Source: a bacterium (GTDB taxonomy: Bacteria > Patescibacteriota > Minisyncoccia > Phycocordibacterales > Phycocordibacteraceae). From it: DNA of 50,307 nucleotides. Location of the stretch: the NCBI GenBank assembly GCA_021789225.1, contig JAJYJQ010000002.1, positions 1 to 50,307 on the forward strand. The letters run 5' to 3'. The position numbers and the translations under genes were made by a program. The notes below the pieces were generated by a model. It searched no databases. It saw nothing but the letters and a program-made list of their open reading frames with translations, and was not told where the DNA came from. This document shows positions 26,022 through 28,847 of this stretch, piece after piece (positions within the stretch are counted from its first letter, which is position 1; every line of letters begins with the position of its first letter).

Positions 26022-28847
26022 ATGGCGAAATACGATCACCAAGCGGTAGAAAAGAAGTGGCAGGAAAAATGGGAGGCGCACGGTATGTACCGTGCGCACG
26101 ATGACTCCACGAAGCCGAAGGAGTACATACTCGACATGTTTCCGTACCCTTCGGGTGCGGGGCTGCACGTCGGCCACGTCGAGAGCTATACCGCTACCGA
26201 CATCATGGCGCGTTTCGCGCGCATGCAGGGAAAGGAAGTGCTGCACCCGATCGGCTGGGATGCGTTTGGTTTGCCTGCGGAAAATTACGCTATCAAGACG
26301 AAAACGCCGCCGCAGAAAAGCACGGATGATGCTATCGGGAATTTCCGCCGGCAGATAAAATCGCTTGGCCTTTCGTACGACTGGTCGCGCGAGATCGGCA
26401 CGCACTCGCCAGAATACTATCGCTGGACGCAGTGGTTCTTCCTCCTTTTGTACAAGCACGGCCTCGCGTATCGTGCGAAGTCGAAAGTGAATTGGTGCCC
26501 TTCGTGCAAGACGGTGCTTGCCAATGAGCAGGTGGTGGATGGAAAGTGTGAGCGTTGCGGCACGGAAGTCGAGCAGAAAGACCTCGAGCAGTGGTTTTTC
26601 AAGATCACGCAATATGCAGACGAGCTTTTGAGCGGACTCGATACTATCGACTGGCCGGACTCGACCAAAGCCGCGCAGAGAAATTGGATCGGCAAGAGCG
26701 AAGGTGCGGAGATCGAATTCGCGATCGTGGGACGCGAAGAAAAAATAAAAGTCTTCACGACTCGCCCCGACACGCTCTTTGGCGCTACCTATCTCGTGCT
26801 TGCGCCCGAGCATCCGCTGGTGGCTGCGCTCGCCGGCCGCATCAAGAATGAGAAAGAAGTGCGCACATATGTGAAGGCGGCGAGCAACAAGACCGACCTG
26901 GAGCGCAGTGCGGAAGGGAAGGAGAAGACGGGCGTGTTGCTGAAAGGTATCAAGGCGGAGAATCCGGCAAACGGCGAGAAGCTGCCGGTCTTTATCGCCG
27001 ACTACGTCTTCGGCAGCTACGGCACCGGCGCCATCATGGCCGTGCCTGCACACGACGAGCGCGATTTTGAATTTGCGCAGAAGTTTGATTTGCCGATTCG
27101 GCAGGTGGTCGTGTCGTGCACAGACGATCCGAAGAACCCGCCAGAGAAAGGATTGAAGGAGGTGAAGCGTGACACTGTTGTGGTGCATCTGAAAGACCTC
27201 TCCACGGGCAAGTATGCGATTCTCGAATGGCATGGGTCGCTCGAGGGCATCACCACCGCCATCATGGGTGGCATCGAGGAGGGGCAGACGCCCGAAGAGG
27301 CGGCGCTCATGGAGATTCGCGAGGAAGCGGCACTTGAGGGTGTTCGTATCACGCGCAAACTTCGCTGGATAACGGGCGCACGATATTTCGCATCGCATAA
27401 GGCAGAAAACCGGGTTGCGCATACCTACGCGCTGCTTGCGGAGGTGGATAGTCTTGAAGGGCAGGGCGCCATTCCTGATAACGAGCAGACGAAGCACACG
27501 CTCGTATGGGTGGACGAGAACAAAGTGCTTGATCATCTCACGGTGGATCATCAGAAACAGATATGGCAGCTCCTCCACAAGGAAGCGGCGCTTACGGGTG
27601 ATGGCTATCTCATTAATTCGGGTTCGTTTGATGGCCGCGACAATCGTGAGGCTATGCGAGAGATTGCTGAGTCGGTTGGCGGGAAGATGGTAACGACGTA
27701 CCGCCTACGCGACTGGGGCGTCTCGCGCCAGCGCTACTGGGGTGCGCCGATTCCTATCATCTACTGCGAAAAATGCGGTACGGTGCCCGTGCCAGAAGAA
27801 GACCTGCCAGTGCTCTTGCCGGAAGATGTGGATTTCATGCCCACAGGCGAGTCGCCGCTCGCGCGTTCGGCATCTTTCCACCAGGTCACGTGTCCGACCT
27901 GCGGTGCACCGGCGCGTCGCGAGTCCGACACGATGGACACCTTCGTCTGCTCAAGCTGGTACTACTATCGCTTCGCCGACCCGCACGATGATAGCGCGTT
28001 TGCGAGTGACGCGGCCATCAAGAAGTGGCTGCCAGTCGACCTCTACCTGGGCGGCGCGGAGCACACCGTTCTCCACTTGCTTTATGCGCGCTTCTTTACG
28101 AAGGTGCTCCACGCGTTTGGCTATACCTCCTTCGACGAGCCGTTCCAGAAGATGCGCCACCAGGGCATCATCCTCGCCGAGGATGGGCGCAAGATGAGCA
28201 AGTCGCTCGGCAACGTCATCAACCCGGACGATGTGGTGCGCGAGTACGGCGCCGACACGTTGCGCCTCTACGAGATGTTCATGGGTCCGCTCGATATCGC
28301 GAAGCCGTGGAATACGAACAATATCACCGGCGCCCGCCGCTTCGTGGAGCGCATGTACCGCCTGCTCGAAAAGCGTACCGAGACAGAGCCCGCGACCTTC
28401 GCGCCGCTCCTGCACGAGACCATCAAGAAGGTGGGCGAGGACATTCAGGAGCTGAAGTTCAATACGGCCATCAGCCAGATGATGATCCTTTTGAATGCAG
28501 CGGAGGAGGGGATTTCCGACGAGTCGCTCAAGATTTTCGCGCGTTTGCTCGCGCCCTTTGCGCCGCACCTTGCCGAGGAGCTCTGGCATGCGCTCGGAGA
28601 GACGGAGTCGGTGCACTTTGCGGGCTGGCCGCAGTACGATGAGGCGCTCCTCGCGGCGAAAGCGGTGACAGTGATCGTGCAAGTGAACGGAAAGCGTCGC
28701 GGCGATATTTTGCTCGCGCCGGACGCCTCGCAAGAGGATGCGCTCGCCGCTGCGTCCGCGATACCGGCCGTTTCCGCTGTGCTCTCAGGCAACGAACCCA
28801 AGCGTGTCGTCTACGTCCCCGGCCGCATCCTGAACTTAGTCGTATAA
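26022..28847 (+). CDS. leuS: leucine--tRNA ligase with an about 160-aa Nudix-fold insertion
   Basis: HVGH (GLHVGHVESY), CP1 editing domain (TTRPDTLFGATY), RLRDWGVSRQRYWG and KMSKS. An extra segment at 27111-27600 carries a degenerate Nudix box. The start is placed at ATG 26022. Confidence 0.95.
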   Translation: MAKYDHQAVEKKWQEKWEAHGMYRAHDDSTKPKEYILDMFPYPSGAGLHVGHVESYTATDIMARFARMQGKEVLHPIGWDAFGLPAENYAIKTKTPPQKSTDDAIGNFRRQIKSLGLSYDWSREIGTHSPEYYRWTQWFFLLLYKHGLAYRAKSKVNWCPSCKTVLANEQVVDGKCERCGTEVEQKDLEQWFFKITQYADELLSGLDTIDWPDSTKAAQRNWIGKSEGAEIEFAIVGREEKIKVFTTRPDTLFGATYLVLAPEHPLVAALAGRIKNEKEVRTYVKAASNKTDLERSAEGKEKTGVLLKGIKAENPANGEKLPVFIADYVFGSYGTGAIMAVPAHDERDFEFAQKFDLPIRQVVVSCTDDPKNPPEKGLKEVKRDTVVVHLKDLSTGKYAILEWHGSLEGITTAIMGGIEEGQTPEEAALMEIREEAALEGVRITRKLRWITGARYFASHKAENRVAHTYALLAEVDSLEGQGAIPDNEQTKHTLVWVDENKVLDHLTVDHQKQIWQLLHKEAALTGDGYLINSGSFDGRDNREAMREIAESVGGKMVTTYRLRDWGVSRQRYWGAPIPIIYCEKCGTVPVPEEDLPVLLPEDVDFMPTGESPLARSASFHQVTCPTCGAPARRESDTMDTFVCSSWYYYRFADPHDDSAFASDAAIKKWLPVDLYLGGAEHTVLHLLYARFFTKVLHAFGYTSFDEPFQKMRHQGIILAEDGRKMSKSLGNVINPDDVVREYGADTLRLYEMFMGPLDIAKPWNTNNITGARRFVERMYRLLEKRTETEPATFAPLLHETIKKVGEDIQELKFNTAISQMMILLNAAEEGISDESLKIFARLLAPFAPHLAEELWHALGETESVHFAGWPQYDEALLAAKAVTVIVQVNGKRRGDILLAPDASQEDALAAASAIPAVSAVLSGNEPKRVVYVPGRILNLVV

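Follow-up and report, generated by a model that had tools for sequence, protein, structure and literature searches.

A Nudix-fold domain inserted into the editing domain of a leucyl-tRNA synthetase from Patescibacteria

The window analysed here, i.e. the whole 50,307-nucleotide stretch of contig JAJYJQ010000002.1 (assembly GCA_021789225.1), encodes a leucyl-tRNA synthetase (LeuRS; 26022–28847, + strand; 941 residues plus stop) whose editing domain, connective polypeptide 1 (CP1), houses an additional domain of 164 residues (residues 364–527; 27111–27602, + strand). This insert almost certainly constitutes a complete Nudix fold. Judged by its sequence signature, it belongs to a distinct Nudix subfamily, R..LxW..GGx5[EQ]x7xEUxEExG..[FY][FY]AxHKxxNR..Ex3Hx3W, which occurs in three settings: as free-standing proteins of ~160 residues, at the exact same site in most LeuRS of Parcubacteria and the candidate phyla radiation (CPR), and in a small clade of class II prolyl-tRNA synthetases (ProRS). 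As far as we found, the protein is a widespread but undescribed variant of two well-known kinds of enzyme, a class I synthetase and a Nudix hydrolase. In the reading we prefer, to which we assign a probability of roughly 0.4, the insert would be a tethered, active pyrophosphohydrolase that clears adenylylated polyphosphate by-products, or caps derived from them.

The Nudix profile PF00293 matched the isolated insert with 34.4 bits (E = 2.6e-8), above its gathering cut-off of 21.1, and scored 30.8 bits within the whole protein; it also matched 56 of 56 diverse homologous inserts. The AlphaFold2 (AF2) model of the insert alone was predicted with a pLDDT (predicted local distance difference test) of 95.1 and a pTM (predicted template-modelling score) of 0.88. 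A Foldseek search with this model retrieved 520 Protein Data Bank (PDB) chains at E ≤ 1e-3, and among the matches listed 50 of 50 were Nudix proteins with a probability of 1.00. These included E. faecalis 2azw, NUDT15, Chlamydia CT771, human hydrolases of diadenosine tetraphosphate (Ap4A), NudB and RppH, with T. thermophilus Ndx1 also among the structural matches; the tightest superposition among the matches listed was with the Aquifex Ap4A hydrolase 3i7u (TM-score 0.80, rmsd 2.6 Å). The predicted secondary structure comprises strands 380–392 and 397–403, the Nudix helix 424–436, and strands 462–475 and 492–497, which corresponds to the α/β/α arrangement with a loop–helix–loop box, the box being carried by helix 424–436. 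A sequence-only reading of this stretch had proposed a complete Nudix fold with the same assignment of strands and helix, and both the PF00293 search, which it had put forward as a check, and the AF2 model of the whole synthetase (pLDDT 91.4, pTM 0.82, with helix 424–436 present) bear this out. It had also named two outcomes that would speak against it, namely the lack of a Nudix fold or an ordinary insertion of studied LeuRS. Neither was found, the fold being that of Nudix proteins by Foldseek and AF2 and the corresponding loop being short in studied enzymes.

The insertion point is located 18 residues past the editing-site aspartate D345, within the PF13603 editing domain. This profile matches residues 220–370 to its positions 1–147 of 185 and picks up again past the insert, which falls between profile positions ~147 and 148. 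The alignment with T. thermophilus LeuRS breaks at approximately residue 363 and resumes at ~380, and that with N. gonorrhoeae LeuRS breaks at 371 and resumes at 391. Close relatives without the insert, by comparison with which its boundaries were fixed, have 10–42 residues at this site. In the model, strand 363–368 leads into the domain and strand 528–530 comes after it, according to the predicted secondary structure. The frame-0 translation of 27111–27600 reads VSCTDDPKNPPEKGLKEVKRDTVVVHLKDLSTGKYAILEWHGSLEGITTAIMGGIEEGQTPEEAALMEIREEAALEGV...HKEAALTG, and the flanking segments are FAQKFDLPIRQVV (27072–27110) upstream and GYLINSGSFDG (27603–27635) and RLRDWGVSRQRYWG (27702–27743) downstream. 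The extra 164 residues form a genuine insertion within a surface loop of CP1. The short linker expected in model LeuRS was recovered in both reference enzymes (~15–20 residues in T. thermophilus and N. gonorrhoeae), and the ~160 extra residues surmised from the letters amount to 164 codons, with each quoted sequence landmark falling where it had been placed. Of the proposed span 27111–27600, the start holds, but the end cuts the last codon, the in-frame end being 27602.

Several trivial origins of the insert were considered and discarded. It is not a known LeuRS-specific insertion, as the T. thermophilus and N. gonorrhoeae loop is short here and the PF13603 profile is merely interrupted. An assembly chimera or a frameshift was rejected on the grounds that the open reading frame (ORF) is continuous and the architecture recurs at 80 genome loci and in over 100 independent sequences, which were drawn from several sources. 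An intein or mobile element was likewise dismissed, the insert matching PF00293 alone.

The host protein matched the bacterial LeuRS model TIGR00396 (leuS_bact) with 1023.8 bits, well above the equivalog cut-off of 548.4, in two stretches with the insert between them. Its AF2 model superposed on T. thermophilus, N. gonorrhoeae and E. coli LeuRS with E-values of ~1e-85 to 1e-92 and 36–41% identity, the best value being obtained with T. thermophilus LeuRS 2bte (E = 8e-92, 41% identity). The ATG at 26022 (MAKYDHQ...) is most plausibly the start, although the mechanical ORF (25932–28847, + strand) opens at a GTG at 25932. The HIGH motif of the synthetic site, here HVGH (residues 49–52; 26166–26177), retains H49, G51 and H52, and KMSKS (residues 724–728; 28191–28205) lies in the second half of the catalytic domain. 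Within CP1, the threonine-rich editing motif TTRPDT (residues 246–251; 26757–26774) keeps T246, T247, R248, D250 and T251, and AHDERD (residues 343–348; 27048–27065), with the conserved aspartate D345, keeps H344, D345, R347 and D348. All these residues of the HIGH and editing motifs are invariant among 112 relatives. Past the insert (27603–28847), the gene goes on to encode what is left of CP1, the latter half of the catalytic domain, the anticodon-binding domain and the C-terminal domain, all of these features being on the + strand. As the TTRPDT residues are invariant, the editing site appears intact, and since HIGH, KMSKS, TTRPDT and AHDERD are all present with their key residues invariant, the host LeuRS as a whole, editing site included, looks fully functional. 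The G+C content of the gene is 58.6%, compared with 41–43% in two orthologues (L084:10001–12385 and L085:10001–12823), to which the protein is nevertheless ~78–80% identical outside the insert despite this large compositional shift. An antisense ORF of 522 residues (26010–27578, – strand) overlaps the LeuRS gene and is regarded as a by-product of its high (58%) G+C content.

A whole-protein search of 5.8 billion proteins supplied the 120 best LeuRS relatives. Of these, 110 carry an insert of 155–166 residues at the same site, and those with a named source are assigned to Parcubacteria, Paceibacterota, Minisyncoccia or Patescibacteria. A word-indexed search with the insert alone found one protein (P0001), and whole-protein and profile searches were needed because word-indexed searching is too insensitive for so divergent a domain. 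Against 1.84 billion cluster representatives, the insert profile retrieved 168 clusters at E ≤ 1e-30 and 603 at E ≤ 1e-10. In addition, one genome per GTDB species was scanned with a profile built from the window's own insert type only (T1, see below), so that this taxonomic survey refers to T1. It confirmed 85 loci, of which 80 were kept, in at least 80 species-level genomes, and the matches sit in ORFs of ~900–1240 residues in nearly all cases where the contig permits. The labels are nearly all from CPR, namely Kaiserbacteria, Paceibacterota, Nomurabacteria, Adlerbacteria, Moranbacteria and Kuenenbacteria, along with many generic "Saccharibacteria". Three records of CPR-type LeuRS with the Nudix insert are labelled Gammaproteobacteria (two) or Actinomycetes (one) (L023, L056 and L060), and these are probably mis-binned or mislabelled metagenome-assembled genomes. 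The LeuRS-embedded Nudix domain is a common trait of many CPR lineages rather than a singleton, which answers the question of taxonomic spread that the sequence-only reading had raised.

The same reading knew of no described Nudix module within an aminoacyl-tRNA synthetase (aaRS). This stands for the literature, as full-text searching turned up no paper in which LeuRS, or another synthetase, is described with a Nudix domain, and NCBIfam holds no dedicated model for the LeuRS–Nudix architecture, although it has one for isoleucyl-tRNA synthetase (IleRS) joined to a GNAT domain (NF040702). It does not stand for databases, in which automated Pfam annotation already assigns PF00293 to these LeuRS proteins.

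The embedded domains fall into discrete types, T1 with 62 members, T2 with 19, T3 with 16, T4 with five, T5 with three and T6 with two, plus three singletons, and identity between types is ~30%. These types replace each other, or vanish, between otherwise near-identical and syntenic LeuRS genes. The body of the window's LeuRS is 80% identical to that of P0003, while their inserts share 27%, and inserts 72–76% identical to the window's occur in bodies merely 54–62% identical. Similar pairs are P0025 and P0059 (body 89%, insert 33%) and P0080 and P0103 (body 87%, insert 26%), and four LeuRS with bodies ~80% identical (P0008, P0085, P0106 and P0107) bear four different types. In the immediate clade of the window's LeuRS, the insert is absent in most members and the window's copy is the sole T1. 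On a neighbour-joining tree of the bodies, at least 31 type changes are required, as compared with nine under strict vertical descent and ~55 for random labels. The junctions are sharp, following the pattern ...PI(R/K)QV(V/I) / insert / (T)G.G.L.NSG....

The exchange can be followed at one locus, since L085 (P0003, with a T4 insert) and L084 (P0005, without insert) are syntenic with the window. The shared gene order comprises the ATP synthase operon, YchF, a membrane protein of 191–195 residues, LeuRS and, on the other strand, a DedA/VTT gene. When the window and L085 are aligned by codons, their nucleotide identity is 0.64–0.80 upstream and 0.54–0.80 downstream of the insert, and 0.38–0.46 across residues 364–528, with 0.55 at the box. 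The G+C content at third codon positions is 0.66 in the insert versus 0.75 in the rest, but the dip runs past the insert, so that the signal of foreign origin is weak. The simplest reading of these patterns is that the module has repeatedly been gained, lost and replaced by recombination at one orthologous site.

Such turnover would be expected if the Nudix and other hydrolase inserts were conflict modules that detoxify, or act as decoys for, nucleotide-mimic synthetase inhibitors or toxins, with the exchange reflecting an arms race. The swapping of discrete types between LeuRS 80–89% identical fits this scenario, as do the up to three Nudix copies in some proteins, a weak match to the PADLOC candidate defence family PDC-S07 in 26 of 56 members, and the precedent of ileS_w_GNAT (NF040702), a synthetase to which a modifying domain has been added. 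However, selection within types is strongly purifying rather than diversifying, the genes nearby have ordinary housekeeping roles (ATP synthase, YchF and the DedA/VTT protein), and the PDC-S07 match is weak and missing for the window's own insert. Moreover, known adenylate-mimic inhibitors have phosphoramidate or sulfamoyl links, which are not known to be cleavable by Nudix enzymes. We therefore regard the conflict scenario as very improbable.

The Nudix box of the insert, GGIEEGQTPEEAALMEIREEAAL (residues 416–438; 27267–27335, + strand), departs from the full consensus GX5EX7REUXEEXGU at Q422, M430 and A437, and keeps G416, E431, I432, E434, E435 and L438. The three substitutions (Q for E, M for R and A for G) are those that the sequence-only reading had singled out. 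The putative metal-binding glutamates E431-I-R-E434-E435 (27312–27326, + strand) are also kept in ProRS-embedded and free-standing members. Downstream follow the subfamily signature Y455-F-A-S-H-K460-A-E-N463-R464, i.e. [FY][FY]AxHKxxNR (27384–27413, + strand), with Y455 located 17 residues past the box, and E488-x3-H492-x3-W496 (27483–27509, + strand), which provides a downstream acidic residue and an aromatic signature. All 111 embedded copies have G416, E431, E435, K460 and W496. The count is 109 for G417 and likewise for E434, 107 for N463, 105 for E488 and likewise for R464, and 103 for H492, and R383 and W403 are each kept in more than 90% of the copies.

From its deviant box, the insert had been suspected of binding nucleotides or RNA ends rather than hydrolysing them efficiently, and a non-catalytic module of this kind, i.e. 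a nucleotide- or RNA-binding, regulatory or structural domain, would account for the three substitutions, which are common to the whole T1 type (62 of 111 copies). Set against this, the glutamates E431, E434 and E435 are near-invariant in T1 as in the types with a canonical box, and E488 is likewise retained. Positions 422 and 430 covary, with R430 in 31 of 31 copies that have E422 and a residue other than arginine (A, M, T, N or other) in 73 of 74 copies that have Q422. This covariation suggests that the E/R pair forms a dispensable paired contact, the two partners of which may be lost together, rather than reporting decay of the active site. The Q variant also occurs in T2 and in some free-standing members. 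The full canonical box is present in ~28% of embedded copies, including those of the nearest LeuRS relatives (P0003 and P0004). T1 inserts have a mean identity of 65%, compared with 54% for the LeuRS bodies, and the insert is the more conserved part in 88% of 1891 pairs, within a sequence set picked by similarity to the window's protein. The T1 insert thus appears at least as conserved as the synthetase that carries it, as would be expected under purifying selection. Because the three box glutamates are near-invariant and the E/R pair covaries, a binding-only role is not favoured and we consider it improbable; the insert is probably catalytically active.

The subfamily is not confined to the main LeuRS site. 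LeuRS sequence flanks the domain in 109 of its top 150 representatives; 27 are short proteins, with no more than 210 residues and an initial methionine, and one of these (P0001) is a free-standing gene in its contig. The free-standing members resemble T2–T4, with ~33–57% identity, and none of them has T1 as its nearest type. Fifteen representatives have two or three Nudix copies, and most of these multi-copy proteins (P0122, P0123, P0124, P0126 and others) have LeuRS flanks; P0123 (1140 residues) bears copies at residues 219–373, 381–536 and 702–861. Some relatives use a second CP1 insertion site near residue 240, which accommodates a serine hydrolase (PF06821), a Ham1-like nucleoside triphosphate (NTP) pyrophosphatase (PF01725) or a Nudix domain. 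These second-site inserts (P0039, P0041, P0043, P0062, P0096 and P0097) span approximately residues 240–400 and are found whether or not the main-site Nudix domain is present. The window itself also encodes two free-standing canonical Nudix enzymes, as the earlier reading had noticed, of 142 residues (5542–5970, + strand; PF00293, 85.5 bits) and 145 residues (35344–35781, – strand; PF00293, 82 bits), both with a full box. At the sequence level, these are unrelated to the LeuRS insert beyond superfamily membership, and the possibility that the insert duplicates a neighbouring gene was rejected, one of them giving no BLASTP alignment and the other 24% identity.

A different synthetase has acquired the same subfamily. 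P0245 is a class II ProRS (PF00587, HGTP_anticodon and ProRS-C_1) with the Nudix domain at residues 383–534, between the anticodon-binding and C-terminal domains, which matches the insert profile with E = 1.6e-35. Four more ProRS clusters (P0272–P0275) share this architecture, two genomic loci of which type were located (L082:5593–7524 and L083:3720–5744). The ProRS copies retain every signature residue of the subfamily. The nearest ProRS without the insert are named Nanoarchaeota or Woesearchaeota, and the gene neighbours of the ProRS–Nudix loci are compatible with archaea. This is a second, independent synthetase–Nudix chimera, and the fact that the subfamily has repeatedly become embedded in unrelated synthetases, two so far, speaks for a functional association with aminoacylation.

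Nevertheless, the insert might simply be a hitch-hiking housekeeping enzyme, that is, a generic pool-sanitising pyrophosphatase of the MutT/NUDT15/NudI kind that has settled in a permissive surface loop of a gene which, in these streamlined genomes, is essential and constitutively expressed, with no mechanistic tie to leucylation. NUDT15, NudI, NudB and MutT1 are among its top structural matches, the second CP1 loop of relatives holds the Ham1 ITPase-like, serine hydrolase and extra Nudix domains described above, free-standing homologues exist, and close relatives manage without the insert. This explanation does not account for the presence of the subfamily in ProRS, an unrelated synthetase from a different lineage, which points to a non-random association with aaRS, as does the dominance of LeuRS flanks among the top 150 representatives; nor does it fit a T1 domain that is more strongly conserved than its host body. 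On balance, we deem it distinctly unlikely.

To place the subfamily among known Nudix families, the insert profile was compared with PDB sequences, and the best matches were AvrM14 (E = 1.4e-9, full length), followed by lupin Ap4A hydrolase (5.7e-9) and NUDT12. AvrM14 is an mRNA-decapping Nudix enzyme (bioRxiv 10.1101/2023.11.14.566975). Among NCBIfam models, those of RppH were the commonest match, in 54 of 56 members, yet all remained far below their cut-offs, and the insert was not filed as RppH because the best score of the window's copy against the PRK00714 models was 16.3 bits, far from the curated cut-off of 116. The MutT 8-oxo-dGTPase model did not reach its cut-off either (TIGR00586, 11.9 bits versus 97.9), and the ADP-ribose pyrophosphatase models likewise scored far below cut-off.

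Residues outside the box have served as family markers. According to Bessman's markers, a proline ~16 residues past the box denotes ADP-ribose pyrophosphatases, the motif SQPWPFPxS denotes NADH pyrophosphatases, and a tyrosine 16–18 residues downstream of the box, reportedly from Dunn et al. in 1999, denotes hydrolases of diadenosine polyphosphates (ApnA). The tyrosine is found at +16 to +18 in 100 of 111 embedded copies, including Y455 at +17 in the window's insert, which therefore shows the ApnA marker. A proline at +15/+16 is found in 0 of 111, and SQPWPFPxS, the NudC/NUDT12 motif, is absent from all inserts. In structure, Ap4A and Ap6A hydrolases fit most tightly among the matches listed. 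Taken together, profile and fold comparisons place the nearest relatives of the subfamily, as far as can be inferred, in the group of RppH and the dinucleoside-polyphosphate (ApnA) hydrolases.

The same affinities are compatible with an RNA-end enzyme, RppH- or decapping-like, that would act on 5'-triphosphate, NAD-capped or Np4-capped RNA, possibly on tRNA held by the synthetase, and not on free dinucleotides. In its favour, the RppH models are the most consistent NCBIfam match, AvrM14, a decapping effector, is the best PDB profile match over the full length, and RppH structures match at TM-scores of ~0.65. Furthermore, the acceptor end of tRNA, with its 5' and 3' termini next to each other, is bound by LeuRS and by ProRS alike. 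This is countered by the low scores of all RppH matches with respect to curated cut-offs, by the 5' end of mature tRNA being a monophosphate made by RNase P, and by the existence of free-standing subfamily members without an RNA-binding partner, and we view the RNA-end reading as unlikely.

We prefer the clean-up reading, in which the LeuRS-tethered Nudix domain acts on ApnA-type by-products, because profile, fold and tyrosine marker point to the RppH/ApnA group and synthetases make Ap4A. According to a review (PMC10148737), aaRS are a main cellular source of Ap4A, which Nudix hydrolases including RppH degrade, and lysyl-tRNA synthetase is able to add an Np4 cap to RNA in vitro. The tethered domain would be a working Mg2+-dependent pyrophosphohydrolase rather than a dead binding module. 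The synthetase would make Ap4A or other dinucleoside tetraphosphates (Np4N) when its aminoacyl-adenylate reacts with ATP or another NTP, and the Nudix domain would hydrolyse these, or Np4 and 5'-polyphosphate RNA ends derived from them, asymmetrically to yield a nucleoside monophosphate (AMP from Ap4A) plus NTP or RNA. The fusion would thus place the clean-up enzyme on the producer of the by-product. For the substrate taken separately, an ApnA/Np4-type compound is a guess that falls short of even odds.

Several points weigh against this clean-up role. The substrate assignment rests on weak similarity because no curated Nudix subfamily model reaches its cut-off (16 versus 116 bits for RppH), and Foldseek ranks the NTP pyrophosphatases NUDT15, NudI, NudB and MutT1 high as well. 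The window's own box is devoid of the first glutamate, the arginine and the glycine of the consensus, and LeuRS is not known to rank with the strongest producers of Ap4A. Nor does a role in ApnA removal explain the location of the module in the editing domain, the frequent swapping of types (31 changes for a minimum of nine) with each type strongly conserved, or why the second CP1 site bears a serine hydrolase, a Ham1 NTP pyrophosphatase or an extra Nudix domain.

A broader and more doubtful extension of the clean-up reading is that, in much of the CPR, LeuRS would be a three-active-site enzyme, with sites for synthesis and post-transfer editing and a cis-acting Nudix site in the editing domain that destroys adenylylated side products of the synthetic site, i.e. 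Ap4A/Np4N, Np4-capped RNA or released mis-activated adenylates. The same arrangement would have arisen independently in the class II ProRS of probable DPANN archaea, and the domain would behave as a swappable cassette, with types differing in specificity. If so, translational quality or alarmones would be controlled at a further, new level that is peculiar to ultra-small symbiotic cells.

With respect to studied systems, the insert resembles RppH/NudH and the ApnA hydrolases (E. coli RppH, NUDT2, Aquifex aq_158, CT771 and Ndx1) in its fold (TM-scores of 0.6–0.8), the REUxEE glutamates, the downstream acidic residue, the tyrosine 16–18 residues past the box and the best weak profile matches. 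Unlike these free-standing, single-domain enzymes, it is spliced into a loop of another enzyme and possesses the [FY][FY]AxHKxxNR and Ex3Hx3W signatures and an N-terminal NPP..R extension, and T1 is without the first glutamate, the arginine and the glycine of the box. AvrM14 from flax rust (8DP8/8DP9), the best full-length profile match among solved structures, covers profile positions 29–154, including S/HKxxxR and Ex3..W, but it is a free-standing, secreted eukaryotic effector with no link to translation, and its similarity to the LeuRS Nudix domain is remote. The host conforms to bacterial LeuRS (2BTE, E. coli 4AQ7 and N. gonorrhoeae 7NU8), being 41% identical to the T. thermophilus enzyme with all catalytic and editing motifs present, whereas a 164-residue enzyme domain replaces the ~15–20-residue loop of studied LeuRS, and none of the solved LeuRS listed has such an insert.

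The closest architectural parallels are IleRS–GNAT (NF040702) and NadM–Nudix (NF003786/NF003790), the latter a nicotinamide mononucleotide adenylyltransferase fused to an ADP-ribose pyrophosphatase, in which a HIGH-motif adenylate-forming enzyme is likewise joined to a small-molecule-modifying or Nudix domain. According to NCBIfam descriptions and a review, these are whole-domain fusions with another partner or Nudix subfamily, whereas the LeuRS Nudix domain is an internal insertion in an editing domain, exchangeable by type and recurring in a class II synthetase. The trans-acting axis of aaRS, Ap4A and Nudix enzymes, in which NUDT2 or RppH degrade the product, follows the same producer/degrader logic, but its known activities reside on separate proteins, and no covalent fusion of an Ap4A-producing synthetase with a degrading Nudix domain was found in the literature.

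Aminoacyl-tRNA synthetases are among the best-studied enzymes, and domains added to them have repeatedly exposed new biology. The present case differs from the usual appended domain in that a whole second hydrolase is located inside the proofreading domain of LeuRS. It spans a large uncultured bacterial radiation and is conserved no less strongly than the synthetase, yet it is exchanged, lost and multiplied like a cassette, and it recurs in a class II ProRS. If Ap4A-type products were degraded, an alarmone producer would for the first time be seen covalently coupled to its degrader, which would also offer a handle on Ap4A and Np4-cap biology in unculturable organisms; if tRNA or adenylates were the substrate, the domain would provide a new proofreading activity. 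The domain also defines a Nudix subfamily with a clear sequence signature.

Finally, the surroundings of the gene yielded some minor observations. A gene for an MliC-like protein (membrane-bound lysozyme inhibitor, PF09864; 28858–29280, + strand) lies between LeuRS and the DedA/VTT gene in the window and is absent from this position in L084 and L085. Conversely, these two loci have an NTPase_I-T gene (PF01931, inosine/xanthosine triphosphatase family; L084:4304–4834 and L085:3915–4454) between the ATP synthase alpha and gamma genes, which corresponds to positions ~17135–17878 of the window. Downstream in the window, ARAGORN identified a tRNA-Ile with anticodon UAU (31142–31214, + strand), a kind of tRNA by which AUA codons can be read instead of by the lysidine (TilS) route.

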